A model generated the notes under the pieces. It was given only the letters and a program-made list of their open reading frames with translations. It was not told where the DNA came from and did no database searches. Below are positions 2,699 through 22,845 of a stretch of 32,000 bases of DNA, piece after piece (the stretch's first letter is position 1; every line of letters starts with the position of its first letter). The position numbers and the translations under genes are program-made. This DNA is from Vibrio vulnificus CMCP6 (GTDB taxonomy: Bacteria > Pseudomonadota > Gammaproteobacteria > Enterobacterales > Vibrionaceae). The DNA lies in the NCBI RefSeq assembly GCF_000039765.1, contig NC_004459.3, positions 360,001 through 392,000 on the forward strand. The letters are read 5' to 3'.

Positions 2699-2783
2699 AT
2701 TCCCACGCATGGGAATCCACCGAAGTCAGATGCTTAACGAAATCGAGTGCTGCTGGTATTGTAGCTCACAACTGGACAGAAGC
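2699..2783 (+). repeat. Solitary hairpin unit (ATTCCCACGCATGGGAAT) plus right half-unit plus trailer (TGTAGCTCACAACTGGACAGAAGC)
   Basis: The hairpin at 2699-2716 is identical to the array consensus. 2717-2759 is homologous to the array variable block (..cttaacgaaatcgagtgctgctgg..). 2760-2783 matches the trailer seen at 15281-15306 and 11946-11970. Confidence 0.7.
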
Positions 2784-2849
2784 AATTTAGGTTGGTTACG
2801 CTACCTTGGTTCTTTCAAATTTGCTTTACTAAGCCAAAAAACTAGGTAT

Positions 2850-2868
2850 CAAAAGGCAAGAACTGACC
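2850..2868. repeat. Left 19-bp inverted repeat of cassette 1 (CAAAAGGCAAGAACTGACC)
   Basis: Its reverse complement matches 4697-4715 at 17/19 and 15169-15187 at 17/19. It matches 12059-12077 in the same orientation at 17/19. Confidence 0.6.
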
Positions 2869-2917
2869 GTTTTGGTCTATTAATACCTTTGGTTCTAGTT
2901 AATAGCTTATTGATTTA

Positions 2918-2941
2918 GTTTGTGTTTGTGTTTGTGTTTGT
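2918..2941. repeat. Hexanucleotide microsatellite (GTTTGT)x4
   Basis: Read directly. Lies about 70 nt upstream of the 3013 start. Confidence 0.9.
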
Positions 2942-3012
2942 GACCCACTGTGATGCATATTAACCCCTATAAGTGGTAATCTAAGCAAATTTACTCATAT
3001 AGGATTTATAAA

Positions 3013-3861
3013 ATGGAACAAGTTATCCTCCGCTATGATGGCGAAGCTCTCGTTGAACACAGCATGAACCTTAAATTGGTTGCTGACTCTCTACAAGGTA
3101 TTGAAGCCTTAGTAAGAGAAGTCCATGAAGAAATGGGCGGCAAAGAAGAAGAGCTGAACCTTCAAATCAAAGGAGGATTCCAAAAGGGTTCATTTGAGTT
3201 TTTATTTACCTTAGGGCAGCAACTACCTGATGGTATTGAGTTACTTAAGATTATCGGCTTCGGTAGTCCAATAGCTGCTGGATCGTTGATGGCTTACCTT
3301 GAATGGTTGAAAGGTAAGAAAATCCAAAAAATAACTATGACAGAAGAAGGTGACTGCAAAATAGTGACCGAAGATGGTGAAGATAAAGTTGCACCTAGTT
3401 ACATGCGCCCTCTCCTAGCTTCAACATCTGTCCGTGGTGCTTTCAGCAAAATCATCAGTAAACCACTACGTGATAGTGGTATAGAAGTCTTCGAGGCTCT
3501 ATCTACAGAAGAAAAGAAAGCTGACCGAACTCAATATGTATCAGTAACTACAGCCAACGAGAAAAACTATCGAGCTAAAAATACTACTGTAATTGACTTG
3601 ATAGATAATAAACCGATGGATGAGAAGGTAATAACATTCCTTACGGTACATAAAGATAAAGACACTAGTTGGCGTGTTGAAGACGTTGATGGCATCACCT
3701 ACACCGTGAAAATGGAAGATGAAGACTTCCTAGCTAACTTCCGCAAGGGTAACGAGCCAGATATTTTTGTGAACGCATACGCAGTTGAGATTGTCGAAAA
3801 AGAAAATACGATAAATCTGGACAAAACCTATTCTATAGTTAAAGTATACGCTCCTGAATAG
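3013..3861 (+). CDS. Hypothetical cytoplasmic protein (282 aa), first gene of a 3-gene operon
   Basis: Long ORF with an AGGA RBS context (ataggatttataaaATG). No motif I can assign. Confidence 0.65.
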   Translation: MEQVILRYDGEALVEHSMNLKLVADSLQGIEALVREVHEEMGGKEEELNLQIKGGFQKGSFEFLFTLGQQLPDGIELLKIIGFGSPIAAGSLMAYLEWLKGKKIQKITMTEEGDCKIVTEDGEDKVAPSYMRPLLASTSVRGAFSKIISKPLRDSGIEVFEALSTEEKKADRTQYVSVTTANEKNYRAKNTTVIDLIDNKPMDEKVITFLTVHKDKDTSWRVEDVDGITYTVKMEDEDFLANFRKGNEPDIFVNAYAVEIVEKENTINLDKTYSIVKVYAPE

Positions 3862-3880
3862 GCGTGTATTTCTTAACCAA

Positions 3881-4141
3881 ATGGAGAATGTGATGGGTGA
3901 AGTAGCCAAAATACTACTACTCATAGTAGCTTGTGCGCCCATCCTTTACTGGCTGAGCAAGATAGTGACTTCATTCGTCCTATACAAGCTATCCCCACCT
4001 CACTACGTAGCTATGCAGTTCGAGGACAAAGAAGGGAATGTACGTAATAGCAAGGTAGTTGATGTCTCTAAGGATAAAAACTTCTATGCCGTGGTTGCTC
4101 AGATCTACAAAAACAGCCAGCACAAGGAAGGGAATACTTAG
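3881..4141 (+). CDS. Small membrane protein (single N-terminal TM); true start probably ATG 3893
   Basis: GGAGA RBS lies 6 nt before ATG 3893. Hydrophobic segment ILLLIVACAPILYWLSKIVTSFVLY. Its stop overlaps the next start (TAGTG). Confidence 0.5.
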   Translation: MENVMGEVAKILLLIVACAPILYWLSKIVTSFVLYKLSPPHYVAMQFEDKEGNVRNSKVVDVSKDKNFYAVVAQIYKNSQHKEGNT

Positions 4142-4629
4142 TGAGTAATAAGAACTCTATTGCGGCACCAACATTTGCGAATGGTAGCGCTGCGATTTTA
4201 GGTGGTTTTGCTCTGGAGTTTGCCGCTGGTCTTGAACAACCTCTATTGAAAGAGTACGCAATCTACGTTGTTCCTGCCTTTACGATATTTCTTGCTTATA
4301 TCTTCAATATCCTTGCTAGCTTGAGTGCTATGTCAGTTACCGAATTGGTGGCTATTTGGTCTTCTCGAGGCTACTTCAAAGAGCTTAAAGACCAAATAAG
4401 TGACCCTCTAACTTCAGAGGCAAGGCGAGAAGAAAAGCGTAAGGAATATGAAGAAGCTCTTGACGCGAAGTTAGCTATGAAGAAAGGCAAGTTTTCGATC
4501 TTCAACGCAGCCAACCAAAGAGCTACTAAACAGGCAGAAAAAGCACTTCAGCACGCACCAACACAGACTGATCGGGAAGCCCTCGAGAAGCAAACTAAAG
4601 AATTCCAGCAAACCACCCCCCAAGAATAA
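4141..4629 (+). CDS. Membrane protein (2-3 TM segments plus charged C-terminal tail), GTG start
   Basis: The GTG start overlaps the upstream stop, suggesting translational coupling. Hydrophobic stretches AAILGGFALEFAAG and IYVVPAFTIFLAYIFNILASL. A strong terminator follows. Confidence 0.55.
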   Translation: MSNKNSIAAPTFANGSAAILGGFALEFAAGLEQPLLKEYAIYVVPAFTIFLAYIFNILASLSAMSVTELVAIWSSRGYFKELKDQISDPLTSEARREEKRKEYEEALDAKLAMKKGKFSIFNAANQRATKQAEKALQHAPTQTDREALEKQTKEFQQTTPQE

Positions 4630-4633
4630 CAAG

Positions 4634-4657
4634 AGCGGTCTGTACGACCGCTTTTTT
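4634..4657 (+). terminator. Rho-independent terminator of the 3-gene operon
   Basis: AGCGGTC-TGTAC-GACCGCT followed by TTTTTT. Confidence 0.75.
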
Positions 4658-4696
4658 AATACTCTCGAGCACAATAAACGTATGAAAAACAAGAAG

Positions 4697-4715
4697 GGTC
4701 AGGTTTTGCCTTTTG
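4697..4715. repeat. Right 19-bp inverted repeat of cassette 1 (GGTCAGGTTTTGCCTTTTG)
   Basis: Inverted partner of 2850-2868 (17/19). Same orientation as 15169-15187 (17/19). Confidence 0.6.
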
Positions 4716-4731
4716 CCTTTTGCCTTTTGCC
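4704..4731. repeat. Heptanucleotide microsatellite (TTTTGCC)x4
   Basis: Read directly. It expands the outer end of the 19-bp repeat. Confidence 0.9.
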
Positions 4732-4795
4732 TGTCATTAGCTCTAGTATCATAAAAGTAGATCGTCAAGGCTTGCTATTTCTTCGACGCATACAT

Positions 4796-4847
4796 TTTGG
4801 GGCAAAGTGTGCTAGAACTGTTCGCGTGACACGCCTCTGGGCAGAAG
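4796..4847 (+). repeat. Junction-family copy a: core TTTGGGGCAAAG plus trailer-like CTCTGGGCAGAAG
   Basis: The 12-mer is identical to 7282-7293. The GGGGCAAAG-TGTG context resembles 20528-20541. The trailer resembles 15291-15303. Confidence 0.5.
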
Positions 4848-4953
4848 TAAGTTAAGATTGTCCCTTAAGCCATTGGCTTCGAATAAACTACGTTCAGGCG
4901 AATCCATATTGAAGGCTTTTCTAATGCGCCGTTGGTATGCATTCAGTGTAACA

Positions 4954-6660
4954 TCACGTGTGGTCAGTCTCAGAACTGACTAAATCTTGAACAATCTCTT
5001 TAAGCATACTTAGTCTGCCTGCATCTAATGCATTTTCATGGTGTGCTTTCAACACGTTGATAGGCTTTAAATCGCTCCGTTTTTTATCAGGTTTAGGTAT
5101 TTGGAGGAAACCTTCTAAATCAGACTCAAACTGATGCAATCCTGTTGTACAAGGTGTCTTGGCTCCTTGGATGATGCCATTCCAAACTTTATGATTAATG
5201 AACTTATTTACAGCGTCATTATCTCCATCAAACAGTACAGAGTGTTTAATACCTATTACATTGAGTAAGTGCATAAATCGATGCAAATTAAATTTACCTA
5301 CACAATCTAAGATGTATACGCGATGTTCTCTCAAAAACTCCCAATCACTATCAGCTAAGCAATCAAGCAATACTTTTTCAGATGGTCCTTCACACAATAG
5401 TACATGTCTTGCAAAGAAGAGATTTGAACGCTCTGTATCTAGCCACAAAAAGTACTTTATCGCTTCATCAGCAGCTCTTACTTCCTCATCAAATTCGGGA
5501 GACTTATCTTCCCCATGAACTCTTGCAGCAACTAGGTTGTTTGATAGTATTTCCTTTAGAGAACGCTCTGTTATTTGATAAGCTGTTGTAGAATCTGTTT
5601 CTTTGAAAAGTCGAGAAATAGAGTTTATTGAGTCGATTGACTTGCTAACGAAAACTGATGAATGCGTCGAAACTAATACTTGTTGCTGCTCGTCTGAAAC
5701 TAGTTTATTTAAGCTTCGGTAAAGCACATCTTGCTGTGCGGGATGTAAAAATGCCTCAGGCTCTTCAAATAGTATCAATGAAAAATCGGGGTTAAAATCT
5801 TTTTTGGTCGATTTGGTTTTAGCACTATATTTAGCTGAAAGCTTGATGAGTGTATATATCAAATGGCGTTGTAAACCTTGGCCAAATGACGAAATATCCA
5901 CTCGCTCACCAAGGTTACTATCTTCAATATGTGGCTTTAACAAGCTCTTGACTAGGTCATCAGTGTTAATAGGGGACACTTCAATATCAAAACCTACACC
6001 CCATTGTTTCAGTTCACTATTTATTTCAGATTTAACACCATCAATTGAAAATCCGCTAATTTCTTCCTGTTTAAATACTTTATTGAATTCGTTAAATGCG
6101 GTTGTTAACGTCTTAAATGACTCACTACTAGCAATAGCCTTTTTCATCACCACGTTAACCATATTTCTAAATGGTGAAGGTCCTGTAGTTTTCATGCTAT
6201 CTTCGACCTTACTAACTGCTGGTATGTAGATAACACTACCTAGCTTAGATGTGGATACGTTAGCAGCACCGTAAAACAAATTGTTAGATAACTGCCCGTT
6301 CTCATAAGCATAAATATTTGATTGTTTAGACTGAACTAATCCATGCTCTGACTGAAGATATTTACGTACCTTAAGAACTCGATCCGCTGAACGGTACTCT
6401 TCCTTCAGAGAGTCTTGTTCTTCTGGTGTAGTTAAGAAAGAAAGTTCAATCCAACTCTCTTGATCATCAGTTGAAAATTTGGGGAAATCTCTCTTAGTAT
6501 CGAACTTTAAGCCACTTTCTTCATAAAATACGCGCAACGCCGACAAAAGGTTTGTTTTTCCTGAGTTATTTTCTCCAACAATCAAAGAATAAGGGTTAAC
6601 CTCAATAGCAATATCCTTGATTGAACGGAAATTATGCACTTCAATTTTTTTGAGTTTCAT
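4954..6660 (-). CDS. OLD-family nuclease (ABC/AAA15-type ATPase plus C-terminal TOPRIM), stand-alone class-1-like
   Basis: N-terminus MKLKKIEVHNFRSIKD...IVGENNSGKTNLL (Walker A). LILFEEPEAFLHP (Walker B/D-loop). C-terminal TOPRIM signatures VLLCEGPSEKVLL and LFDGDND. Its 568 aa is similar in length to P2 Old/GajA. No UvrD-like GajB neighbour. Confidence 0.85.
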   Translation of the reverse strand: MKLKKIEVHNFRSIKDIAIEVNPYSLIVGENNSGKTNLLSALRVFYEESGLKFDTKRDFPKFSTDDQESWIELSFLTTPEEQDSLKEEYRSADRVLKVRKYLQSEHGLVQSKQSNIYAYENGQLSNNLFYGAANVSTSKLGSVIYIPAVSKVEDSMKTTGPSPFRNMVNVVMKKAIASSESFKTLTTAFNEFNKVFKQEEISGFSIDGVKSEINSELKQWGVGFDIEVSPINTDDLVKSLLKPHIEDSNLGERVDISSFGQGLQRHLIYTLIKLSAKYSAKTKSTKKDFNPDFSLILFEEPEAFLHPAQQDVLYRSLNKLVSDEQQQVLVSTHSSVFVSKSIDSINSISRLFKETDSTTAYQITERSLKEILSNNLVAARVHGEDKSPEFDEEVRAADEAIKYFLWLDTERSNLFFARHVLLCEGPSEKVLLDCLADSDWEFLREHRVYILDCVGKFNLHRFMHLLNVIGIKHSVLFDGDNDAVNKFINHKVWNGIIQGAKTPCTTGLHQFESDLEGFLQIPKPDKKRSDLKPINVLKAHHENALDAGRLSMLKEIVQDLVSSETDHT

Positions 6661-6772
6661 ATTAGTTATCTGCCACTTCTATAAAAATTTCCAAATGCCG
6701 CACTCTAAACCAATTCTGGGGTATCTATTCAGTAAGCCGACTTCAGGTATCAAATAATAAATTATCGCCACG

Positions 6773-7117
6773 TTAGACACTTTCAGCGGCTGATCTAACT
6801 GCTTTAACGATTGAAAATGGTCTTATCTCGTCATTGGAGAAATGAACCTTATAACAAGGATGTGATGCCCATACACCATTATTTTGACGTTTCTCGTAGG
6901 CAACACTGAAAGCTGTAATCAATCGACCATTTAGCTCATAACCAGGTGAGTTATCACAGTATCTTACGTATACATCTTTGAGTGCTTCATATAGCTCACC
7001 TGCCTGAATTAATCCGCTTGATAGCTGTTCTTCCTTCTGCTCGGTGAAATAGCTAATAGCGTCGCCTTGTTTCTTAAATAGCTTCCCTGCAATTGTGACT
7101 GATTTTGCTTTGCCCAT
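6773..7117 (-). CDS. Small hypothetical protein (114 aa) upstream of the OLD nuclease
   Basis: ORF with a GGATAA-type RBS context. Same strand as the OLD gene, 112 nt upstream of it. The pattern is loosely reminiscent of DUF3223/DCL-type small domains, but I cannot support that. Confidence 0.55.
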   Translation of the reverse strand: MGKAKSVTIAGKLFKKQGDAISYFTEQKEEQLSSGLIQAGELYEALKDVYVRYCDNSPGYELNGRLITAFSVAYEKRQNNGVWASHPCYKVHFSNDEIRPFSIVKAVRSAAESV

Positions 7118-7281
7118 TAATATTATCCTTTAGATCTAGTTGTTGACTTATCTTACGCCCCTGACTTGAACCCAACTCTTTTTGTCCGCTTATAAGTTAG
7201 CTTAATATTCAACTAAATACATAATGAGGCGTTAGATAAACTTGGTCAAACTGAAGTGACTAGAAATGTGTCCTAAACAGG

Positions 7282-7392
7282 TTTGGGGCAAAGCTATGTT
7301 TGCCGTGATTGGCATGCTTTGTGATTGGCATGCCTAGCGAAATTGAGTGGCGCTGATTTTAAGCTACTTGCCCTATTCCCACGAATGGAAAT
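7282..7392 (+). repeat. Junction-family copy b: leader plus one (degenerate) hairpin, abutting the IS remnant
   Basis: 7282-7374 aligns with the array leader 20527-20601 at about 80 percent by eye, plus an internal ~17-nt duplication (TGATTGGCATGC twice). Hairpin 7375-7392 is ATTCCCA-CGAA-TGGAAAT (two changes). Confidence 0.7.
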
Positions 7393-7975
7393 TAACTCTT
7401 TACGCCTCTAGGCTTACCTCGTGACTCAAATGCCATAGAGAGTGCCTTTCCTGTCATCTTGCTATCGGGAGAGACTGACATCGCCCAAACAATTGGCTTT
7501 CTCGCGAATAGGTCGATGACAACAGCAAGATACATCCAGCGCTGACCTGTCCAGACATACGTCACGTCTCCTACCCAGACTTGGTTGGGAGCAGTAACGG
7601 CAAACTGTCGAGATAGATGGTTTGGGATCTCTACATGCTCTTGTGATGTTTTTCGATAACGGTGCTTCAATGTTTGGCAGCTTACCAGGCCTAATAATTT
7701 CATCACCTTAGAAGCTCGATAACGTGCCAGTTTTACACCTTGGGCCGTTACCATGTCGGCAATGCTTCTCGCACCCGCAGAGCCATTGCTTGCCGTGTGA
7801 ACTTCTTTAATGAGACTCTTGAGTTTCACCAGCTCAGGGGAAACACGTTTGGGGCGACAACGCCAGTATTTGTAGCTGCTACGCTGGACACTGAACACAT
7901 GACACAAGGTGGTTACACTAAAGCTCTGCCTGAGTTTCTCGATTATCGAGAGCTGTTCAGCGAGTCCGACATCAA
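7392..7975 (-). pseudogene. IS3-family transposase OrfB, disrupted and truncated
   Basis: The -1 frame reads [16 protein letters not shown] then a stop. The expected continuation IIEKLRQSFSVTTLCHVFSVQRSSYKYW is in another frame, which indicates an extra 1-nt indel. The first DDE Asp region (VWVGDVTYV) is present. The ORF ends at ..ESRGKPRGVKS, before the HSDQG second-Asp motif. Confidence 0.8.
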
Positions 7976-8253
7976 GAGAGCTGTAGCTTTTTTAATATTT
8001 CATTGTGCTCTTCAAGGCGTGCAAGTTTCTTCTTCAGCTCACGTATCTCAATTTGCTCTGGTGTCATAGGTGCGGCTTGGGGAGTGACTCCCTTTCTTTC
8101 TTGCTTAAGCTGCCTTACCCACTTGTCCATTGTCGATTTACCGACACCCATGGCTTTTGCAGCTTCAACAACGGTGTAGTTTTGGTCGAGCACAAGCTGT
8201 GCTGCTTCGAGTTTAAATTCTGCACTGAAAGTGCGTCTGGTACGCTTGGTCAT
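7972..8253 (-). CDS. IS3-family transposase OrfA (HTH)
   Basis: [53 protein letters not shown]...[24 protein letters not shown] closely parallels IS911 OrfA. An AGGTGA RBS precedes ATG 8253. Confidence 0.8.
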
Positions 8254-8345
8254 AGCTTCACCTGTCATGCTATGAGGTGCATCTTAACACCTCTAATCAG
8301 GTGGCCAAATTCACTATGTCACTACAAAATACAGTAAAAAAACCA

Positions 8346-8374
8346 TTGCAACAGTATAGTTATTGTAATATTAT
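8346..8374 (+). promoter_or_regulatory. Candidate sigma70 promoter TTGCAA-17-TATTAT
   Basis: Read directly; about 45 nt upstream of ATG 8419. Confidence 0.4.
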
Positions 8375-8418
8375 AAAAATACAAGCTAAACAATAAGAAT
8401 AATAAAGAGAGCAGTAAA

Positions 8419-8787: not shown

Positions 8788-8832
8788 TAAGAATAACCAA
8801 AATAAAAAACATAATAAGAAGGCATTAAAAAC

Positions 8833-9237: not shown

Positions 9238-9243
9238 CAAAGT

Positions 9244-9270
9244 AAACCACCGCATCGGTGGTTTTTACTT
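9244..9270 (+). terminator. Rho-independent terminator
   Basis: AAACCACCG-CAT-CGGTGGTTT followed by a T-run. Confidence 0.75.
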
Positions 9271-10208: not shown

Positions 10209-10224
10209 CTGTATATATGTACAG
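10209..10224. promoter_or_regulatory. LexA (SOS) box CTGTATATATGTACAG
   Basis: Perfect CTGT-N8-ACAG palindrome 12 nt upstream of the umuD ATG. A possible TTGACG (10178) -17- CAAAAT promoter lies just upstream. Confidence 0.85.
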
Positions 10225-11920: not shown

Positions 11921-12030
11921 CAAAGGTGTATTTTCTGTGAGCTGCGTTAGTACACCTTTGGACAGAAATGAGTTTTGGAAAATCAAACATTAGCAAATGA
12001 CTAATAACTTCAGGTATGACAAATAGCTAA
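11921..12030 (+). repeat. Junction-family copy e: CAAAGGTGT.. core remnant plus trailer (CCTTTGGACAGAAATG..)
   Basis: 11921-11941 resembles 20531-20552. 11946-12030 aligns with 15281-15365 at roughly three-quarters identity by eye. Confidence 0.55.
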
Positions 12031-12058
12031 ACATGATAGAAAAACTGCCACCAAAAAG

Positions 12059-12077
12059 CAAAAGACAAGACCTGACC
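12059..12077. repeat. Left 19-bp inverted repeat of cassette 2 (CAAAAGACAAGACCTGACC)
   Basis: Perfect reverse complement of 15169-15187. Confidence 0.85.
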
Positions 12078-12182
12078 CTATTGGTTTTTACTCTGGAATA
12101 TGCAACCACATTGAGTTAAATTATTTTATATGAATCAGATGTATAGTAAGCTACAAAAAATTACAACAGATAAAACGGAAGC

Positions 12183-13388: not shown

Positions 13389-14459
13389 GTGAATTTGTCT
13401 ATTTCCCGATCATAAAAACTAGAGATGGCGAACTCCGCTGTTTTGAACACATCAATGATGATGATTTTTCAAAGATTTTGCCAATTTACGAACTAACCAA
13501 ATCGAGAAAAACAAAAAAAGCACCTGATGGTGATATATATCGCCGTATGAAGCAAATTGCTGAAATTCAGAAGAAGCGACCATTTATACTTGATTTGAGT
13601 ACAAACGAAAAATATATCAACCCTCAGATTGAGCAATTGTTATCAGAACACAACGGCTTTAAAGAGTGGCAGTATTTTCTGTTTGATCTACATTGCGACT
13701 TAAACATCATCCCGATGGTTCACTTGTATGAAGATGATGACGGTAAGTTCGAAGACGTTGAAGAATTCGTAAGAAGTGCTTCTGCAAGAACTAATTGTCT
13801 TGCGGTTAGATTGCCATATGACTTAAGTGACGAAGAAGTTGAATATTATTTAACCCCTATAACAAGAAACCTGAACGAAAATTGTAAACTCTACGTAATT
13901 CTAGATGCTGAATTCGTAAGAAAGAAAGCCATTAATGATGTAGTTGATACTTTCCTTGAAGCATGCTCGGGTACGGAGTCTTTCGCTGATAAAATAGAAG
14001 ACGTTGTAATGCTCTGCTCTAGTTTCCCATCGAATGTTGCTCAAACTGGTGGCGAAGCATATTGCAGGTGAGTTTAGAATCTGTGAAGAAGATATCTATC
14101 AGGGTATTAGTGAAGAGTTCCCAATCAAATATGGCGACTACGTTTCAATTAACACCGAACAAATTGAAATGAAAGGCGGTACTTTTGTACCTAGGATTGA
14201 TATTGCATCTTTAGACGGAAAATCGTTCACCTATAAAAGATACCGTCGAAACAATGGTGGGTATGTTAGAGCCGCAGAGCACACCGTCAGAGATACAACA
14301 TCATATAAGCCGCTTGGAGTGTGGGCTGATGAAGAGATCCAAGCAGCAGCAAATGATAATCCATCAGGTATTAGCCCTGCATTTTGGATATCAGTTCGCA
14401 TGAACTACTACATTAAAAGTCGAATTTTACTCAGAGAATCAGACGATTCTTCGTTTTAG
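13385..14459 (+). pseudogene. Beta-protein family (phage P4 Beta-like, PF14350-type) gene split by a frameshift near 14050-14070
   Basis: The N-terminus FVYFPIIKTRDGELRCFEHI is the typical Beta-family start (YxPILKxxxGExxAL). ORF 13385-14071 and ORF 14034-14459 are adjacent frames that join as ..CSSFPSNVAQTGGEA / IAGEFRICEEDIY..YGDY.. The combined ~358 aa fits the family length. An ATGA overlap links it to the peptidase gene. Confidence 0.65.
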
Positions 14460-15062
14460 TAATGACGGAGCTTTCTTTGTAATTGTGTATATGTCATCCG
14501 ACGTCAAATGAAGGGTGGTTTCTTGTTTCAACAGTTTTGAAGCTACCCCATATCTTTCATTAAAATCGTTTCTTGATAACTGTCTTAATGACTCTAACGT
14601 ATTGTTTTTTGATACGTAGTCGCATAATTCGTGCTTCGATCTTAAATTGCTTCCTTTCGATAGAGCACTCAACTTTTGCACACTTAACGCACTGGCTAAC
14701 ACTCTTTTATCGTGTCGTTTGAACTGTTTTGATTGGCGAACATGAGTAATTTTGCCATTTTCGACCAGAAAGATGCCAACATCTCTTGAAATCGTTGCTC
14801 GTACTTCAGCCAGATTGCTTGGTTCACACACAACAAAGCAAAAATCAAAAAACTTTTTATAACTTTCAATTTGATAATTCAACCTAGATACAGTGTCACG
14901 AGCACCTTTTATTTCAAAGGCAGTTAAGTAGCCATCATCCAGCAATGCTAGATCCGCTCGTCTTTCACCAAATTGAAATGAAAATTCAGAACCAACAACA
15001 AAATTTTCATACTTTTCTAGAAAGTACCTTACTATTAGTTTTTTAATTTCTAGCTCTGTCAT
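14439..15062 (-). CDS. PD-(D/E)xK-type nuclease-like protein (sce7726/MmcB-like)
   Basis: ERRADLALLDDGYLTAFEIKGARDTVSRLNYQIESYKKFFDFCFVV shows the D...E-x-K restriction-endonuclease-fold core, followed by the DT..RL..Q...Y motif I associate with that family. Convergent with the Beta gene, overlapping its 3' end by 21 nt. Confidence 0.65.
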   Translation of the reverse strand: MTELEIKKLIVRYFLEKYENFVVGSEFSFQFGERRADLALLDDGYLTAFEIKGARDTVSRLNYQIESYKKFFDFCFVVCEPSNLAEVRATISRDVGIFLVENGKITHVRQSKQFKRHDKRVLASALSVQKLSALSKGSNLRSKHELCDYVSKNNTLESLRQLSRNDFNERYGVASKLLKQETTLHLTSDDIYTITKKAPSLLKRRIV

Positions 15063-15076
15063 CTATGCCACTTTAA

Positions 15077-15092
15077 CTGTATATACAAACAG
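15077..15092. promoter_or_regulatory. LexA (SOS) box CTGTATATACAAACAG upstream of the minus-strand PD-(D/E)xK gene
   Basis: CTGT-N8-ACAG with an AT-rich spacer, 15-30 nt upstream of ATG 15062. Confidence 0.7.
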
Positions 15093-15168
15093 CATTATCG
15101 TATATCACTAGCCTATCAGCAAGCATATTGTTGACACCTTTTTTATTGTTATTTCTCCCGAACTTCGA

Positions 15169-15187
15169 GGTCAGGTCTTGTCTTTTG
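15169..15187. repeat. Right 19-bp inverted repeat of cassette 2 (GGTCAGGTCTTGTCTTTTG)
   Basis: Perfect reverse complement of 12059-12077. Confidence 0.85.
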
Positions 15188-15254
15188 ACTCTTATTACTT
15201 TTTGTATATCAAAGTTGACTGAGTATCATTGTGTGATTTGAAGGCGTAACTAAT

Positions 15255-15365
15255 TTTGGGGCATTTTCGTGTTTCATGCCCTGTAGCACACTCTTGGACA
15301 GATACGTGTTTCGGGTAATCGAATATTAGCAATTCACGAATAACTATAAGTATGGAAAGTGCTTT
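15255..15365 (+). repeat. Junction-family copy c: core TTTGGGGCA plus trailer (CTGTAGCACACTCTTGGACAGATACG..)
   Basis: The core is shared with 4796, 7282 and 20527. The trailer is homologous to 11946-12030 and 2760-2783. Confidence 0.55.
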
Positions 15366-15639
15366 AGTTCAGTATCCAGTATGGATGGTGTATATCACCG
15401 CCGCTGGGTGAAGCAAAAAAATTAAACAAACAATCGGGTGGATATCTGTTGACGGCGCATCAACGAGTTGACATGGTCGAGAGTTGTAGACGGTATTGAA
15501 ACGAGAACAAATAGACATTGAAGGTGACACTGCCTTTGAGCGATTCTAAGCACTCGCAGGATAATTGTACCTAGAGGATAGGTCTGCCGCGTCTTTCACT
15601 ATATTTGCGACAGACCCCATCTAACGACTTAAAATATCA

Positions 15640-18201
15640 CTAAATGATGCGGCATTTGCCATTTTCTAAGTCGTTTATGAATTTTTTGTACTTACCAACT
15701 TCGGTAGTATCATTTTCAATGTATAGAACGGAAATTAACTCATTTCTTTTATATTTTCGTTCATGAATCACCTGTTTAATAGGTGTATTTTTAATTATGA
15801 TACCTTTAACGTTTTTTCGTATATTGTCTACTTCTTTCATATTAAGCCTAGCATGAGCAACGTTCTCAACGGTTATTTTATCTAGTAGATTATCGAGTTC
15901 TTTAGCTAGTGATACCTTTTTATCAGTATTTTTTGAACGAATCATTCTAATGTACATTATTCTTATAAGAATGACCTTAGTTGAGGTTGATGAGAGAACA
16001 TCTAGGCTATGAACTAAGTCTGATAGCGATATTGCTTGTTCATCTTTACCTTCATCATATAGTCTTATTATTTCACGTTCAAAAATCTCAGCATCGATTA
16101 TTTCTGGTGTTGAGCTATAATTTTGAATACCTTGAAAGTATAAAGACCTTGCTTCTTCATTCTGTGGTTCCAAATATGTAGAAAACTTATTGCACAAAAA
16201 TTCAAATTCAGGGTCTATAATTTCTCTATCTAATGATTTAATAAAGTTTAACGTAGATATCCACCTTTCCTTTTTAGACTTATTTTGTAAATCAAGCACA
16301 AGACACATGATTAAGTTGTGGAAAAAGTCAATATTTAGTGATTCTGATTGTTCAATTATTTTTTGTATACATTTTAGATATTCCAAAAATCTATCATCAT
16401 CAAGACATTGAGATAGGTTTATAAAAGATTTTATATGAGTGTCTTTCAATAGGTATGGGTTGGAATTTTTATTGGAAGTGTGGATTTTTTCACTCTCATT
16501 AACCTTTAGGAATATAGAATCCCAAAATAAATCACAGTCTTCATCTTTTTCATATCGCATAATAGAAGGAACTATAACATCCAGTCCAACAGCATACTGA
16601 CATGCACTATCTATATGCCGTTCAGAATTCATATTATCTAGCTCTTGAAGAATCATACTTGCAATATATAATACTTCCATAATTGAATTCTTTATATCAA
16701 TTAAAGGTTCATTTTCAACTGATATAGATAATTCTTGAATTATTGATTTACAAAGTCGTATTATTTCATCGGTATGATTATTATTAGACTTTAACAGAGC
16801 TAGACAATAATCTACTGTTGCTCGATACTTCAATGAATCTAGCTCTTCGCCACTAACTAAAATTGATAGCTCTTCGATAGCTGGCTCTATAGAGTTTGTT
16901 TTAAAAAAACTAAACCCAAGCATCCAAGAAACTTCTCTTTGATCTATTTTTTCTACGTCTTTTAATAACTTGCAATACTTAATAGTATCAGTATATTTAG
17001 CATTAAATAGCGTACAAGCAGCTAGCTTGTAACGAATAAAATCCAACATTTCATCGTTGATTTCAGACTCAATTAATGTCAGAAACTGCTTTTCAGCGGC
17101 TATATATTCTTTTTTATTGAATAGTTCTAGTGTTGAGTCAATAGATACATAACTATTTAGACTTAGACTACTTAACCAGGTTTCAGATAGACTTGCTTCA
17201 ACTACTCTATTTTTAAATGCTACAGATTCGTCAGCTTCAGATGGAGCAGCAATGCCCGCTAAATATAACTTAGACCTTATGTGATCGGATACTGGTTTAT
17301 TGTAGTGCATTGAAAATAAACCACTTTGTAAATCTTTATCAGCAGATGCAAGAACTCTTATATGATCTATTGGTGGTCGATCATAATTTGAAAGATATAG
17401 GTCTTTTATTACAGAGTTAATTGAATCAACATCAATATTTATACCAGCTTTTACCTTGTCTTCTATAGTAGATAAAACTTCCCATGACATTCTAGGATTC
17501 CCCTGAATCCAATAATAAATACGCTCAATGACAATATCGTTCAGTTCTAATTTTGACTTCTCGACAAATAAACGAAACTCGCTAAGGCTAAAATCAGTTA
17601 AGAATATTTTCTGACCAATGTTAAATGGTGATATAGATTTATCTTTTATTATCTCACTTGGTTCGGCAACACCAGATATTACATATGTTAAACGCTTTAA
17701 CTCTGGGAAGTTTACTCGCTCGAAATATACACTTCTAATATGTGCGAATATTTTATCAGAGTAATCTGATGAAGTAAGGGAATCAATTTCATCAAGGTTG
17801 ATAATTAGTTTTCCAGAAATTTTATTTAGTATCTTTCTTATTTCAAATCCATGTTCTTTATGTGATGGTATTTTTCTGTTGTTTCTTCTGTTTTCTATTT
17901 CTTCTTCTATATCTTCCAATTTCTCATAGTTAGATTCAATGATTGTGTCTATTATACTTCTAAAACACTCTCTTGCTGTATCAAAACGATTAGATAGATC
18001 TATATAAGCAAAGATATCATTCTCAGTTTCAAGTTTTCTTTTTGTATGGATTAATAAATTTGTTTTACCCATTTGTCTAGATACTAGTATGTATCCAGGT
18101 CTCCCCATATCATTGACTATTTGCTCAATCTGCCTATCTGCGTCTCGTTCTATATATAATTCTCTAGGAATTATTGTTTCTGATATTAATTTTTTAGTCA
18201 T
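15640..18201 (-). CDS. STAND-type ATPase with AAA_35-like N-terminal NTPase domain and long helical (TPR-like) C-terminal region, 853 aa
   Basis: GYILVSRQMGKTNLL (Walker A, Lys46). LIINLDEIDSL (Walker B). SPFNIGQKIFLTDFSLSEF and YYWIQGNPRMS match the PF14516 AAA-like signature (RQMGKTSL / SPFNIG / L.DF..E / GhPyL) as I remember it. The remaining ~600 aa is Leu/Ile/Glu/Lys-rich and repeat-like. Confidence 0.8.
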   Translation of the reverse strand: MTKKLISETIIPRELYIERDADRQIEQIVNDMGRPGYILVSRQMGKTNLLIHTKRKLETENDIFAYIDLSNRFDTARECFRSIIDTIIESNYEKLEDIEEEIENRRNNRKIPSHKEHGFEIRKILNKISGKLIINLDEIDSLTSSDYSDKIFAHIRSVYFERVNFPELKRLTYVISGVAEPSEIIKDKSISPFNIGQKIFLTDFSLSEFRLFVEKSKLELNDIVIERIYYWIQGNPRMSWEVLSTIEDKVKAGINIDVDSINSVIKDLYLSNYDRPPIDHIRVLASADKDLQSGLFSMHYNKPVSDHIRSKLYLAGIAAPSEADESVAFKNRVVEASLSETWLSSLSLNSYVSIDSTLELFNKKEYIAAEKQFLTLIESEINDEMLDFIRYKLAACTLFNAKYTDTIKYCKLLKDVEKIDQREVSWMLGFSFFKTNSIEPAIEELSILVSGEELDSLKYRATVDYCLALLKSNNNHTDEIIRLCKSIIQELSISVENEPLIDIKNSIMEVLYIASMILQELDNMNSERHIDSACQYAVGLDVIVPSIMRYEKDEDCDLFWDSIFLKVNESEKIHTSNKNSNPYLLKDTHIKSFINLSQCLDDDRFLEYLKCIQKIIEQSESLNIDFFHNLIMCLVLDLQNKSKKERWISTLNFIKSLDREIIDPEFEFLCNKFSTYLEPQNEEARSLYFQGIQNYSSTPEIIDAEIFEREIIRLYDEGKDEQAISLSDLVHSLDVLSSTSTKVILIRIMYIRMIRSKNTDKKVSLAKELDNLLDKITVENVAHARLNMKEVDNIRKNVKGIIIKNTPIKQVIHERKYKRNELISVLYIENDTTEVGKYKKFINDLENGKCRII

Positions 18202-19721
18202 GATCTAGCCTTTAAAATGTCTAATGACTCACGATAGTGGCTTTTTAACTTCCTAGGTGAACCTTCTATAAGTTCAATATCAACATTAGGTAGGTTATCA
18301 ATATTCAAGTGTCTGTTTATTATATTGTCTAATTCAATTAGATCTTCTTTATTCCAGTAACCAAGAGAGAATATACTAAAGTTGTCTGATATCTTTTCAA
18401 ACTCCGTTCCAACTAGAGAGTCAGGCTCAAATATAGAAGATAATACTAGTTTGAAATTTTTAATTTCTTTTAATTTTACCAATATAGAATAGATGCATTG
18501 CGAAAATTCTTTAAACGCACAATGATCACTGATTGGTATTTCCTCAATGAATAAAACAAAACTATCAGATTTACATTTGTCTCGTATGATTAACTCTATA
18601 TTATTTAAAATTACAGATATTCGTTCAGACTCATTGATTATGACATTTTCATCGAGATCGTAGGCAATACTTGTAAACATTTGTTGAATGTTTTCATTTA
18701 TAGATGTACCTAAAGAAATATATTGAAAGTCAACTCCGTTTTTGAATAACAGTCTTTGAATAATAGCAGTTTTTCCAACACCAGATGGGCCACAAATCCA
18801 TAGTCCTGATAATCTGAATTTATTTAAAACTATTTGGTCTACATCTCTATGTAGGTAGAAATTTTCTTGATTAGGGGTATATAAATCGAAAAGGACATCT
18901 TCCTTGGAGTCATCTGTTTTTGCTGATGAACTTGTTAACTTTATTTTGCAGAAGTCATTTCTTTCAATAAAACCCCAGAGTGCTTTGTGTGATTGGCTAT
19001 CTTCATTTTCTGGCTTTACGATAGATGAATGATCTGTTCCTGCTATAAGTTTAGCTTTACCAAAGTAGCGTGCGGCTGACTCCTTGGATACAACTCGGTG
19101 TTTTGAATGATTTAACAAGGTCAAATGAAAAGGAGACCTATTTTCATAGCACTCTAAACCGACAATATCAAGCTTAGATGATTGCAATAACTCTTTAAAT
19201 CTACCATCAAGATCATCTAATAATGCACTTCCCCAAGCTAGTTCTTGAGCTAGTTGGTTTTTGAATCGTTTTGCAATCCAACCGAAGCTAGATGCCATCC
19301 GTGAGCCAAAAGAAGGAGATGCATATAGTGCCAATCCAATTTTCTTTCCAACAAATTTGTCTGATTTTGACTCTAAAATATACCTTGCAATTATTCCACC
19401 AGTACTGTGAGTTACGAAAATGATATTACTTTTACTTAGAGCTGGACTTCTCATGTGTTTGTCGGTTTGGCTAATGTGATCCCAAACTTCGTCTGAGCAG
19501 TTTTGAACTCCATAATCATTTGAGTCTATTGATGTATAAAAGTTGGCTAGAAATATATCAATTCCATTAAATCTAGGATCGCTTGCGATTAAGTCAGGCC
19601 AGTAGCGCTGATTCTTATCGTTGAACCAGCATTTTTTACTACTAGAAAATAATCCATGGATAAATATTATGACAGTGTTACTGTTTGAGTACCTTAACCA
19701 ACCATTTTCTTGGACGTTCAA
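18198..19721 (-). CDS. Alpha/beta-hydrolase (DUF676/lipase-like) fused to a P-loop NTPase, 507 aa, TTG start
   Basis: VIIFIHGL (oxyanion region). FVTHSTGG nucleophile elbow (Ser106). GTDHSSIV (His231). Then GPSGVGKT (Walker A, 311-318) and FVLFIEEI (Walker B-like). The stop overlaps the next gene's start (ATGA at 18198-18201). Confidence 0.8.
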   Translation of the reverse strand: MNVQENGWLRYSNSNTVIIFIHGLFSSSKKCWFNDKNQRYWPDLIASDPRFNGIDIFLANFYTSIDSNDYGVQNCSDEVWDHISQTDKHMRSPALSKSNIIFVTHSTGGIIARYILESKSDKFVGKKIGLALYASPSFGSRMASSFGWIAKRFKNQLAQELAWGSALLDDLDGRFKELLQSSKLDIVGLECYENRSPFHLTLLNHSKHRVVSKESAARYFGKAKLIAGTDHSSIVKPENEDSQSHKALWGFIERNDFCKIKLTSSSAKTDDSKEDVLFDLYTPNQENFYLHRDVDQIVLNKFRLSGLWICGPSGVGKTAIIQRLLFKNGVDFQYISLGTSINENIQQMFTSIAYDLDENVIINESERISVILNNIELIIRDKCKSDSFVLFIEEIPISDHCAFKEFSQCIYSILVKLKEIKNFKLVLSSIFEPDSLVGTEFEKISDNFSIFSLGYWNKEDLIELDNIINRHLNIDNLPNVDIELIEGSPRKLKSHYRESLDILKARS

Positions 19722-19846
19722 AATATGCCTTAAAGCTTTGATTTTTAATTATGATACAGCGCTCGCATCAATAAAATCAATAAACAGTGTCAGTCCTGTT
19801 TAACAATTCTTAAATTTCATTATTTAAGGAAAAATGCGTTAGGTCA

Positions 19847-20345
19847 TCAAGATTCCACTCTAATCGCTCTATGTAGGGCTGTAACACCCCTGTCAAAATC
19901 CTTACCATATCTATCAAAAACAATTGAGCCATTCTCACGCCCAACATTGCCCTGTACAAAGCAGCTCTCAACGGTGGAGTCTTGCTTTAAGTAGCTGATA
20001 AAATTATGTAAAAAAAATAAAAGTCATGCCCCTTGTCAAAACTAAGATTTGATTTAAATAGAGCAAACCAATTCGAAGCGTTACCACCTAATCCATTTGT
20101 TTTCTGCATAGAGTAGTTCTGGGAAAATTCCCTCTTCATTTGATGCCACATAATCTAAAAAGCCTAATTCGATTAGCTTTGAATGGATTGGGACTAAACG
20201 TCTAGCTGAATCATTTTCTAGTCTCTGGCCTTCAAGAGTGTCAGAGAAGCTAAGACAGCAAATATTGTCGTCTTTTTGTATGTCTGTACAGTGATGCTGT
20301 GCTAGCTTATTGAGTCTTGCACCAGAGAGTTCTCTCTGAAATTAG
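19847..20345 (-). pseudogene. Tyrosine recombinase (phage-type integrase) remnant, C-terminal catalytic domain only, at least 2 frameshifts
   Basis: Minus-strand frames read SGARLNKLAQHHCTDI..SARRLVPIHSKLIELGFLDYV..IFPELLY, then GGNASNWFALFKSNLSFDKGH, then FLHNFISYLKQDSTVESCFVQGNVGRENGSIVFDRYGKDF. This is the R..(VPIH)..HxxR..Y integrase pattern, with stops between segments and substitutions at catalytic positions (HNF instead of RHTF; GR instead of GH). Confidence 0.75.
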
Positions 20346-20526
20346 ATTTTATAGTCTTTATTATTGCAGGTAAGTAGATAAGTACTCGACAAGTAAACTG
20401 AAGGTTTTCGGAATCTCTTTTGCGCCCCCTAAGATAAAGATACTTTTAACCGTCGATTTCGAATAACTTTTTGTAGGGCAATTGCACATTAACAAGATAT
20501 TAATGAGTAATAGCACTAAGCAGAAA

Positions 20527-21691
20527 TGGGGCAAAGGTGTGTTTGCTATGATCGGCATGCTTTGCGAAATTAAGTGGCACTGATTTGAGATTAACTACCC
20601 CATTCCCACGCATGGGAATCAGTCAGAATCGGCATACTCAATGAAACCGAGAGTCGCTGATGTGAAGTTGACTCCCCCATTCCCATGCATGGGAATCAAC
20701 CTAGATCGGCATCGTCAGTGGAAACCTGTGCCGCTGATGTGAAGTTGACTACTCCATTCCCACGTATGGGAACCAACCTAGATCGTTATGGTCAACGAAA
20801 TCCAGTGCCGCTGATTTGAAGTTGGCTACTCCATTCCCACGCATGGGAATCAGTCAGAATCGGCAGGTCAATAAAATCGAGAGCCGCTGATGTGAAGTTG
20901 ACTACCCTATTCCCACGCATGGGAATCAGTCAGAATCGACAGGTCAATGAAATCGAGAGCCGCTGATGTGAAGTTGACTCCCCCATTCCCATGCATGGGA
21001 ATCAACCTAGATCGGCATCGTCAGTGGAAACCTGTGCCGCTGATGTGAAGTTGACTACTCCATTCCCACGTATGGGAATCAACCTAGATCGTTATGGTCA
21101 ACGAAATCCAGTGCCGCTGATTTGAAGTTGGCTACTCCATTCCCACGCATGGGAATCAGTCAGAATCGGCAGGTCAATAAAATCGAGAGCCGCTGATGTG
21201 AAGTTGACTACCCTATTCCCACGCATGGGAATCAACCTAGATCGGTATCGTCAGTGAAAACCAGTGCCACTGATTTGAGTTAGTTACTCTATTCCCACGC
21301 ATGGGAATCAGTCAGAATCGACAGGTCAATGAAATCGAGAGCCGCTGATGTGAAGTTGACTCCCCCATTCCCATGCATGGGAATCAACCTAGATCGGCAT
21401 CGTCAGTGAAAACCAGTGCCACTGATTTGAAGTTGGCTACTCCATTCCCACGCATGGGAATCAGTCAGAATCGGCAGGTCAATGAAATCGAGAGTCGCTG
21501 ATGTGAAGTTGACTACCCCATTCCCACGCATGGGAATCAGCCATGTTCGGCATACTCAATGAAATCCAGTGCCGCTGATGTGAAGTTGACTCCCCCATTC
21601 TCACGCATGGGAATCAACCTAGATCGTTATGGTTAACGAAATCAAGTGCCGCTGATTTGAAGTTAGCTGCTCTATTCCCACGTATGGGATT
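20527..21691 (+). repeat. Leader (20527-20601) plus tandem array of 15 hairpin-bearing 76-77 bp units
   Basis: Hairpins ATTCCCA-YGYA-TGGGAAT start at 20602, 20679, 20756, 20833, 20909, 20985, 21062, 21139, 21215, 21291, 21367, 21444, 21520, 21597 and 21674. The conserved block is CGCTGATKTGAAGTTGRCT. 20679-20928 is repeated at 20985-21234 with one mismatch. Confidence 0.95.
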
Positions 21692-21927
21692 GCTTTATTC
21701 TAGGTTATTCATATTACTGTTGCGCTGTAAAAGCCTACACCTTTAAATTCAACTCGAATGTAAACTGTAAATTATAGATAAAAAGTAACACCACTACCTT
21801 TCATTAAATTATTATTCAATATAACACATTACATTATTGCCACATGGCAAAGAAATATATCATTAAAACAAATCAACAATAGCCCCTCACTACCACACTA
21901 AAAACAAGAAACATAAAGCATTAAAAC

Positions 21928-21956
21928 TTGAAAGACTTAGATAGATAAGCTATAAA
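21928..21956 (+). promoter_or_regulatory. Candidate sigma70 promoter TTGAAA-17-TATAAA
   Basis: Read directly; about 30 nt upstream of ATG 21987. Confidence 0.45.
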
Positions 21957-21986
21957 ATAAAAACCAACTCATAAATACTTATAATC

Positions 21987-22697
21987 ATGAACAATAAAGT
22001 TAAAGATATCATTGATAATATATTAAAAAACATTTTCAACCATTTAGCGACAAGAAATTCATTCACTCTTTACTACAATGAAGTTTTTCAAGAGTTAGAA
22101 ATATCACTTGCTCAAGATATACCTAACCCCAACATCTCTTATCCCGCAATTAACTCAATATACTTAACAGAACACTGGCAAAACAAAGGAGTTTTGAACT
22201 ATTTAGTAGAGCGGTTACTTGAGCTAGAGTGGGTAAATGGTGTTGCAATTCAATCAATAACCAACCCAATTTTAGGAATGAGCTTGCTACACAACCCCAA
22301 ATGGATTCCGATTATAAATACTAACCAGTTTCATCGGCTGGATCGAATTATCCCGCTCGTGAGAGATAATAAAGAATACTACGATTTATTTTTACAAACA
22401 TTCGAAAAGAAAAGGCCTGCATTCAGTACATTAGATCTATCTATACTAAAAGAAAGTTATATAAGAGTTACTAGTAGAAAAGAAACAGACATACCGTATC
22501 TAACAGATGACCAACTATGTGGATTCGCTCCAGAATATGATGGTACTTCGCTAATAAAACTACCAGAGTGTCATTATAATAATTATAAAAATCAAATCAC
22601 AGCATTAGCTGAAAATCACGGTATATCAGCGCATCACTACATCGGTATGTCTAAATTTTTTGATAGTTTTATAACTTTAAAAAACCCACGTAGTTAA
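21987..22697 (+). CDS. Hypothetical protein (236 aa), no recognisable motif
   Basis: Single ORF lying between the array end and the solitary hairpin at 22828. Very AT-rich. Confidence 0.6.
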   Translation: MNNKVKDIIDNILKNIFNHLATRNSFTLYYNEVFQELEISLAQDIPNPNISYPAINSIYLTEHWQNKGVLNYLVERLLELEWVNGVAIQSITNPILGMSLLHNPKWIPIINTNQFHRLDRIIPLVRDNKEYYDLFLQTFEKKRPAFSTLDLSILKESYIRVTSRKETDIPYLTDDQLCGFAPEYDGTSLIKLPECHYNNYKNQITALAENHGISAHHYIGMSKFFDSFITLKNPRS

Positions 22698-22827
22698 ACT
22701 ATGTTATAAAAAAGTAAAAACGAATAAAACTCACCTTATTTAAGGCATTAACATTTCGTATAAGTAACGCAATATCAGTTGAGATCACTTCCGATTTTAG
22801 GAATGGCAATTACAGCTAGCTAGTTCA

Positions 22828-22845
22828 TTCCCATGCATGGGAATG
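22828..22845. repeat. Solitary hairpin ATTCCCATGCATGGGAAT with left half-unit only
   Basis: Identical to the array B-type hairpin. The left flank ccgattttag..gctagctagttc loosely matches the unit's ctgatttgaagttggctactcc. The right flank GGCTTATTC resembles the array's terminal flank TGCTTTATTC (21692). Confidence 0.75.

Follow-up and report, generated by a model that had tools for sequence, protein, structure and literature searches.

The island and its cassettes

The window, the whole 32,000-nucleotide (nt) stretch that we analyzed, lies in chromosome 1 of Vibrio vulnificus CMCP6 (NC_004459.3, positions 360,001 to 392,000) and holds most of a ~36-kb mobilizable island that, according to look-ups of the window proteins, is integrated at ssrA, the tmRNA gene. 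Here we describe a family of short junction sites in this island that probably divide its accessory genes into exchangeable cassettes. Positions are window positions, marked W where needed, and L-numbers (L001, L030, etc.) denote comparison loci. The left arm of the island reads ssrA, P4-like integrase, alpA, hns, a 250-aa gene, MobA/VirD2-type relaxase, a 259-aa gene, and a hipB-like gene; the right arm consists of small genes, a CyRepA1-like replication gene (W27457-29955, minus strand), a 91-aa gene, and the right attachment site, attR. With an integrase by the tmRNA gene, att repeats, a relaxase, and a replication gene, the island belongs to the integrative mobilizable elements at ssrA. 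Between the hipB-like gene and the small genes of the right arm lies a variable region of ~23 kb, in which the junction sites recur in two versions that we call core and trailer, some of them accompanied by hairpin units. A cassette runs from just past one TGGACA to the next site; it holds a single gene or several, oriented either way, and most of this cargo is anti-phage. The main features are as follows.

2433-2690, plus strand: hipB-like helix-turn-helix gene (Pfam HTH_3), last conserved gene of the left arm; the first junction begins at its stop codon
2698-2790, plus strand: junction S1, one hairpin unit (hairpin 2699-2716), then a trailer (TGGACA 2773-2778)
2779-4843, plus strand: cassette A1, genes 3013-3861 (PDC-S42/LAPAL family), 3881-4141, and 4141-4629; toward its ends, a 19-mer at 2850-2868 (minus) and at 4697-4715 (plus), core a (TGGGGCA 4798-4804), and a weak trailer a' (TGGGCA 4838-4843)
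4844-7283, minus strand: OLD cassette, Old-family nuclease gene 4954-6660 and a 114-aa gene 6773-7117 (Pfam, PADLOC), with a' as its left boundary and core b as its right
7284-7392, plus strand: junction S3, core b (TGGGGCA 7284-7290) and a linker with one hairpin unit (hairpin 7375-7392), cut off by an IS3-family insertion-sequence remnant at 7393-8333
11921-11990, plus strand: junction S4, 3' of umuC, with core remnant CAAAGGTGTA, linker, and trailer e (TGGACA 11959-11964)
11965-15300, plus strand: cassette A2, a gop(M78)-beta-cII defence system, genes 12183-12845, 12846-13388, 13385-14459, and 14439-15062 (minus); toward its ends, a 19-mer at 12059-12077 (minus) and at 15169-15187 (plus), core c (15257-15263), and trailer c (TGGACA 15295-15300)
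15301-20526, minus strand: STAND cassette, AAA_35 STAND gene 15640-18201 and a hydrolase/ATPase gene 18198-19721, with a leader (15303-15354) homologous to 11967-12018
~19830-20345, minus strand: degraded tyrosine-recombinase-like remnant within the STAND cassette
20516-21691, plus strand: junction S6, core d (TGGGGCA 20527-20533), leader, and 15 tandem hairpin units, without a trailer
21700-21775, minus strand: phage tail-gene remnant, from the 3' end of the gene
21987-22844, plus strand: hub segment, a 236-aa open reading frame (ORF; 21987-22697) and a solitary hairpin (22827-22844), kept in most island variants
23096-23103, minus strand: junction S7, hybrid site CTCTAAGTAACT-TGGGGGCA-GAACTGACAG
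23104-26128, minus strand: right-array cassette, a 612-aa gene 23290-25128 (minus), a ParE-like gene 25258-25506, and small ORFs to 26040
26129-26134, minus strand: junction S8, trailer-type site CCACAAGTTGACAGAAG, the first site by the conserved right arm
31442-31458, plus strand: attR, a 17-nt repeat of the ssrA 3' end, CGCCAGCTCCACCAAAC

Cassette A2, which carries most of the argument below, encodes a 220-aa product, an M78 peptidase, beta, and a cII-like protein (PADLOC labels them capP-like, beta, and cll), which makes it the counterpart of the P4 gop-beta-cII system. One extra nucleotide at 14058 (GAAGCATATT, compared with GAAGATATT in CP037931.1 and other strains) splits beta into two reading frames, 13385-14071 and 14034-14459. 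This is due either to a sequencing discrepancy among CMCP6 assemblies or to a true frameshift. Over the part compared (W11986-32000), the window agrees with CP037931.1, also CMCP6 chromosome 1, except for a single 1-nt indel.

Anatomy of the junction sites

The site spans ~26-30 bp and is made up of a left arm, TGG(A or GG)CA, and a right arm. The trailer version reads GTAGCWCAC-N2-3-YTGGACA-RAARTGAGT and the core version CTAARCA-N3-4-TGGGGCA-AAGGTGTG. Core and trailer are two versions of one site, that is, two crossover points around a short linker of 30-45 nt, and some linkers carry 77-bp hairpin units. The left arm of the trailer is an inverted repeat of the right arm of the core. The 26-mer is largely dyad-symmetric in the best cases: AGCTCACAACTGGACAGAAATGAGCT has 18 of 26 positions symmetric (layout AGCTCA-N14-TGAGCT, as in L030), and the symmetry is lower at other junctions.

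On the plus strand, sites lie at 2773, 4798 with 4838, 7284, 11959, 15257 with 15295, and 20527, and on the minus strand at ~23100 and ~26130, adjoining the right arm. The window thus holds two convergent arrays, one anchored at hipB with its sites on the plus strand and one anchored at the right arm with its sites on the minus strand. They meet at a hub composed of the hairpin array, the tail-gene remnant, the 236-aa ORF, and the solitary hairpin. A previous examination of these letters without database searches (the sequence-only reading) had placed all recurring parts on the plus strand; this does not agree with the two minus-strand sites (~23096-23103 and 26129-26134), nor with the 19-mer, which alternates in orientation.

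That reading had also proposed that the junctions form one recurring family, and here the alignments bear it out. Leader b (7273-7392) aligns with leader d (20516-20619) over 120 nt (E 2e-11), and 11948-12018 aligns with 15284-15354 at 76% identity (E 2e-8). The core TGGGGCA does occur, at 4798, 7284, 15257, and 20527, though the short core motif alone is weak (3 matches versus 0.44 expected). Five trailers had been proposed. Three of them genuinely belong to the family (~2760, 11946, and 15281; nhmmer E 1e-7 to 5e-12), a fourth, at 4835, matches only weakly (CTCTGGGCAGAAG, nhmmer E 0.11), and the fifth, at 21736 (TACACCTTT), is instead part of the tail-gene remnant. The counterpart of junction S8 in L070 reads CCACAGTTGGACAGAAACG (nhmmer E 8e-5).

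Hybrid sites, in which the left arm is of the core type and the right arm of the trailer type, are present in five places (L030 17670, W23096-23103, L070 357, L088 10074, and L090 11922). Such hybrids are the expected product of recombination between a core and a trailer, with the linker recombined out.

Several other identities for the junctions were considered and set aside. The idea that core and trailer are the arms of one folded site was dropped, since the 10-bp inverted repeat is found only in site e and d-type sites and is missing from site c. A search of Rfam returned no junction match at the gathering score or at E≤1, so a known RNA was rejected, as was a tmRNA-derived att, whose core does not occur at the internal junctions. 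A search for the motif strings gave no match in the papers covered. Two further observations concern the surroundings of the sites. An ATTAGC...GATAACTNNNRGTATG motif of promoter-like appearance recurs in the right flanks, and junction S8 sits with its inverted copy in a 56-nt near-perfect palindrome (26088-26143) that may double as a terminator.

Cargo differs at the same junctions in sister islands

When the window is compared with sister islands, the points where homology is lost coincide exactly with two motifs, YTGGACA of the trailer and TGGGGCA of the core. Homology stops at 2781 and 2794 (L030 and L032) on junction S1, at 11968-11975 (L033, L035, L036, L038, L039, and L063) on junction S4, past which come five different cargos, at 15300 in L061, and at 23101 in L031, L032, and L070, the last with a different flank at the same motif. 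Homology to leader d starts at 20527 in four contexts (L031, L032, L061, and L063), and homology to L070 starts at ~26117, at junction S8.

What lies beyond these breakpoints varies. The hipB junction, where the hipB-like gene, hairpin, and trailer are kept in V. sp. EA2 and V. olivae, has three alternative cargos: cassette A1, a module with a 981-aa AAA_22 gene, and a 237-aa module. The umuC junction is followed by A2, the AAA_22 module, the 237-aa module, an XhoI-like gene, a cassette with a cold-shock gene, or four unknown genes. The same module can thus occupy two positions. In L030 the AAA_22 module comes after the hipB trailer and in L033 after the umuC trailer; the two copies are 100% identical, and their high-scoring segment pairs overlap by TGGACAGAA. 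The 237-aa module comes after hipB in L032 and after umuC in L036. After site c, STAND is replaced in L061 by DUF2913, GGDEF, and MCP genes, and an equivalent site c' in L063 leads to SIR2-HerA rather than STAND. In L070, the right-array cassette gives way to IS110, Sel1, and OLD-like genes. The sequence-only reading had suggested that related replicons be searched for the same flanks around different cargo, and this is what we found.

The L061 cassette deserves a separate remark. It extends from site c to core d (L061 10329-19300), and its DUF2913, GGDEF-hemerythrin, and MCP genes look chromosomal, so the cargo extends beyond defence genes. We also take one sequence in this cassette, by eye alone, to resemble a Qrr small RNA. 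In a V. alginolyticus plasmid (CP014052; L002 17690-17700), the umuC-trailer sequence is broken off within the site, after CCTTTG, and umuC itself is split by an element that encodes a site-specific integrase and carries three more genes.

The sequence-only reading had further observed that two unrelated modules, OLD (4954-7117) and STAND (15640-20345), sit in the same frame, which we can confirm: each has a 19-mer, core, and trailer on the left and a core or leader with one or more hairpin units on the right. The 19-mers do not bound these two modules, as had been supposed; they belong to the upstream cassettes A1 and A2.

Cassette A2 is portable

Cassette A2 occurs at ≥99.2% nucleotide identity in eight further loci (L085, L086, L088, L089, L090, L092, L093, and L094). 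Across the A2 loci there are six different left flanks, mutually unrelated beyond ~15 nt, and nine different right flanks, and the ends of the cassette stay constant: the left at W11953-11958 and the right at W15300-15302 or, twice, at W15263, the core of site c. The contexts include P7-repressor/mer, HipA, and islands with a resolvase, VPA1267, and a RecD2-like helicase. A2 is also found inside a V. alginolyticus-type integron array (L093), where it stands in place of the four genes (4 kb) found between these two motifs in L001. An "empty" junction exists as well, in a metagenome contig that joins an L090-type left flank directly to a different right flank, without A2.

Searches of PLSDB and of phages with A2 gave no full copies. 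Site-like sequences are intergenic in 8 Vibrionaceae plasmids; L116 has a full core-linker-trailer, and one of the sequences adjoins a cluster like those for ribosomally synthesized and post-translationally modified peptides (RiPPs). Scans with the site pattern gave 0 matches in viral contigs and 1 in metagenome contigs.

The crossover is confined to a few bases

We compared 42 pairs of junctions, anchored on GGACA, and the crossover is confined to at most 6 bp, (T)GGACA, in these comparisons. Most of the 35 pairs with a common left flank diverge directly after GGACA and nearly all do so within 9 nt; the two exceptions are one pair with similar right arms and one that involves a microhomology deletion in L032. 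The other 7 pairs share a right flank and have only 1-3 nt in common to the left of GGACA. Crossovers at the core are alike: four left flanks meet leader d at TGGGGCA, and three right flanks leave A2 at TGGGGCA.

How might the cassettes move?

We think it somewhat probable that the family represents true recombination sites that divide the accessory region of the island into exchangeable cassettes. The narrow crossover window, the unrelated flanks, and the portability between types of element lead us to infer conservative site-specific recombination. A cassette would be excised as a circle and reinserted, or else exchanged site by site, and the recombinase would be supplied in trans. A tyrosine or a serine recombinase would be compatible with the partial dyad symmetry, AGCTCA-N14-TGAGCT, though our confidence in any particular enzyme class is much lower than in the sites. 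An integron-like cassette system with a noncanonical site had been one suggestion of the sequence-only reading, and the comparative evidence favors it, since cargo differs at the junctions, A2 has identical ends in many elements, and the crossover falls within 6 bp; site specificity is deduced from the anatomy of the junctions. A broader claim is that the Vibrionaceae hold a second, integron-independent cassette-exchange system, with a site of ~26-30 bp, a crossover in TGG(A/GG)CA, and a trans-acting recombinase, which would shuttle multigene modules among mobilizable islands, possible GMT-type islands, plasmids, phage-plasmid-like elements, and integron-array DNA. For this, we see the case as evenly balanced.

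A number of observations weigh against these proposals. No protein is shared across the A2 contexts in a co-occurrence analysis and no recombinase was linked to the sites, while the only intact recombinase of the island uses another att, at ssrA. Exact-protein look-ups for OLD and STAND found only this island context, and a mobility of their own is putative. Four sites folded on both strands gave differing structures, with z-scores of -2.1 to +0.35. The proposals assign no role to the hairpin units and the 19-mers, one L032 junction is the ordinary microhomology deletion, with no site event, and excision as a circle is a proposal drawn from sequence. Finally, 40-110 nt around the crossover is moderately conserved on both sides, so homology may play a role.

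Could homology do all the work? The junctions might be conserved intergenic frames, i.e., promoter or terminator modules, whose short arms allow RecA-dependent swapping, for example after natural transformation. Vibrios are naturally competent, the sequence around each crossover is recognizably conserved over the length just given, and the ATTAGC...GATAACTNNNRGTATG motif of the right flanks is promoter-like. However, the crossover is held to at most 6 bp in the 42 comparisons, the left flanks of A2 are unrelated almost from the cassette end onward, and a flank identity of 60-80% is far under what RecA requires at such lengths. We therefore hold this explanation to be unlikely. A plainer version, in which the junctions are ordinary conserved intergenic regions of a duplicated backbone or a chance similarity, can draw on the fact that the shortest motifs alone barely exceed chance, but the extended alignments are highly significant, and cargo and order vary among strains, the opposite of both findings that the sequence-only reading had named as refuting its own proposal. 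We give this version next to no credence.

In mobilization of single strands by an HUH-type enzyme, the sites would be nick sites by hairpins. The enzyme that cuts them could be a relaxase, a Rep of the rolling-circle type, or one like that of IS91/IS200, and starting and stopping at different sites on the same strand would delete, circularize, or insert segments. The single orientation of the sites within each array would suit this, as would the relaxase encoded on the island, the hairpin just 5' of the trailer in many linkers (GGGGCAT..ATGCCCC in site c and L116), the 11-bp stem in site e, and the 18-bp palindrome units. Yet two crossover points per junction, core and trailer, are unexpected from a single nick site; moreover, the hairpins vary in position and sequence, cassettes are present in elements without this relaxase, and the putative oriT region upstream of the relaxase has no site. 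We consider such mobilization improbable. The other suggestion of the sequence-only reading was that small islets, each carrying an integrase (attL-cargo-int-attR), had integrated one after another. A degraded integrase-like remnant adjoins core d, an integrase fragment follows a trailer in L023, and whole islands do stack in tandem at attR (L070 and L071). Here, too, the comparison is unfavorable, as most cassettes lack an integrase and A2 moves without one, core d is preceded by unrelated genes in other strains, and the att core used by the island integrase is absent from the internal junctions. The remnant itself (~19830-20345) is found in one cassette only and has no Pfam match of its own; one database homologue carries PF00589. 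Accretion of this kind is very doubtful. In all, we judge portable homology, HUH-type mobilization, and islet accretion each to be less likely than site-specific cassette exchange.

Hairpin units, hub, and 19-mers

The hairpin ATTCCCAYGYATGGGAAT has 18 copies in the window (at 2699, 7375, and 22827, and 15 in the array at 20550-21691) versus 0.03 expected. The array consists of tandem units with a period of 76-77 bp and an 18-bp palindrome in each. Linkers carry one unit at hipB and core b, two in V. olivae, 15-16 at core d (16 in the L031 and L032 arrays), and none at some other junctions. A scan of 185,579 species genomes with the hairpin pattern gave 19 stretches, 5 of them in Vibrio, and none was an array like that of core d. 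These counts reject genome-wide repetitive extragenic palindromic (REP) or bacterial interspersed mosaic elements (BIMEs). A centromere or iteron array was likewise set aside: par genes are absent nearby, and the rep gene and its ~230-bp repeats lie elsewhere (27457-30819).

Where did the array come from? In the viral contig L003 (400-600), the same hairpin forms a 44-bp-period array that abuts the end of an intact 761-aa tail gene, and the tail-gene remnant of the window matches the end of that protein. The window retains an array and the last ~25 codons of the tail gene, degraded, and intact tail-like genes occur in sister islands L061-L063. The hairpin array may thus have been acquired from a phage. 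The 236-aa ORF of the hub has no family or PDB match, and for the 259-aa ORF there was no informative match.

The 19-mer GGTCAGGTYTTGYCTTTTG has four copies in alternating orientation, at 2850 (-), 4697 (+), 12059 (-), and 15169 (+), with 0 expected, and similarity reaches 38 nt between 4685-4722 and 12052-12089. As inverted repeats, the copies bracket cassettes A1 and A2, 100-130 nt inside the mobile unit, and they are found in no other cassette. We rejected them as general parts of the site and as transposon ends, given their restriction to A1 and A2, their internal position, and the absence of target duplications. Right after one copy lies a (TTTTGCC)n microsatellite (4704-4732), with 4 repeats here and 2 in sister islands such as L031.

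Other features of the island

The att of the P4-like integrase is the ssrA 3' end, CGCCAGCTCCACCA, which differs from the internal junction sites. At up to 3 mismatches, the island att GGTTCAACTCCCGCCAGCTCCACCA has no match at an internal junction, and its sole partial repeat is the 17-nt attR at 31442-31458. In L070 and L071, a second integrase island lies in tandem at attR. Near both island ends, TGTTCCCCAAT is repeated (window 31362-31384 and L031 3250-3285), and these repeats probably serve the P4-like integrase as arm-type binding sites. A pair of ~230-bp direct repeats with 78% identity (30082-30312 and 30590-30819) lies just past the start of the minus-strand replication gene and is possibly the island replication origin.

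Paired palindromes, TTACCCT-N-AGGGTAA, upstream of the hipB-like gene (2369-2418) look like its operators. With these typical palindromes in place, a role of the hairpin as operator of a hipB-like protein is unlikely. A hipA-HTH pair lies just beyond attR (window 31900-32000 and onward; L072 and L075), and a lone hipB-like gene closes the left arm. A weak Rfam match to anti-hemB at 27083-27168 on the minus strand (28 bits versus a gathering score of 49.5; E 0.009) is probably due to chance.

Comparison with known systems

Integrons offer one parallel in organization. They, too, have cassettes arrayed in one orientation, each with its own 3' recombination site, and identical cassettes in different arrays (here A2 in eight further loci and AAA_22 at two positions); breakpoints are limited to a few conserved bases, a conserved platform adjoins the first site, and the cargo includes defence genes. 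Nevertheless, there is no IntI-type gene in the window or the sister loci, the island recombinases being only the P4-like Int and the degraded remnant, and a check for the attC boxes RYYYAAC/GTTRRRY found no GTTRRRY in the junction consensus. The system described here also departs from integrons in having no consistent hairpin fold, two crossover points per junction, two convergent arrays, and cassettes of 2-5 kb that are multigene, in either orientation, and apparently equipped with their own promoters. One cassette of this family is nested inside a true integron cassette (L001 and L093). The true attCs in L001 differ from the junction sites, which lack GTTRRRY, so identity with superintegron attC was rejected.

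The pdif modules of Acinetobacter, which depend on XerC/XerD, are similar in that they carry no recombinase, have sites of ~28 bp and identical ends across replicons, and presumably receive the enzyme in trans. They differ in that the site here is unrelated to dif, is direct within an array rather than alternating and inverted, and belongs to Vibrionaceae islands rather than Acinetobacter plasmids. By inspection, we saw no likeness to the Vibrio dif sequences.

GMT islands of Vibrio, or strand-biased circularizing integrative elements, target a ~30-bp site with short inverted repeats around a ~14-bp spacer (bioRxiv 10.1101/2023.03.28.534373). These islands encode two tyrosine recombinases and an StbA-like protein, and the layout AGCTCA-N14-TGAGCT resembles their target; the comparison is by description only and serves as a lead. 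In contrast to the cassettes here, which lack such genes, GMT moves a whole island by its own trio, and no GmtY/GmtZ/GmtX trio is present among the window ORFs. A VPA1267-family protein, whose namesake gene adjoins the GMT trio in VPaI-6, is encoded in three A2 contexts (L086, L089, and L094), and on that basis these loci may be GMT-type islands.

The host island resembles PIMEs, P4-like satellites, and pipolins in its int-alpA-rep-relaxase makeup at a tRNA or tmRNA gene and in its variable defence cargo, more than half of the length, including P4 gop-beta-cII. That mobilizable islands store defence genes is already known, e.g., for PIMEs (10.64898/2026.01.12.698999). In those elements, the site and mechanism of cargo turnover are undescribed, whereas the turnover points here are set to a few bases. 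The hairpin units, for their part, are like REP/BIME and sopC-type centromere arrays in being tandem with a short perfect palindrome in each, but they are not genome-wide, have no partition genes nearby, and are in direct orientation.

To our knowledge, integrons aside, there is no known site or mechanism for the exchange of defence systems among islands, plasmids, phages, and satellites. Such exchange is fast, and it has been described without either (PMC11551731; 10.64898/2026.01.12.698999; 10.1101/2023.03.28.534373). Here, exchange points are mapped to a few bases and a 3.3-kb defence cassette recurs in many unrelated contexts, which together make the question directly testable. If the sites do act in recombination, they would explain in concrete molecular terms how defence systems are shuffled so rapidly among mobile elements, and they could be used as landmarks to delimit unknown cargo and hence to find new defence genes. 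Gene cassettes delimited by sites are already known in kind, and we rate the junction system of this island as a variant of that kind.

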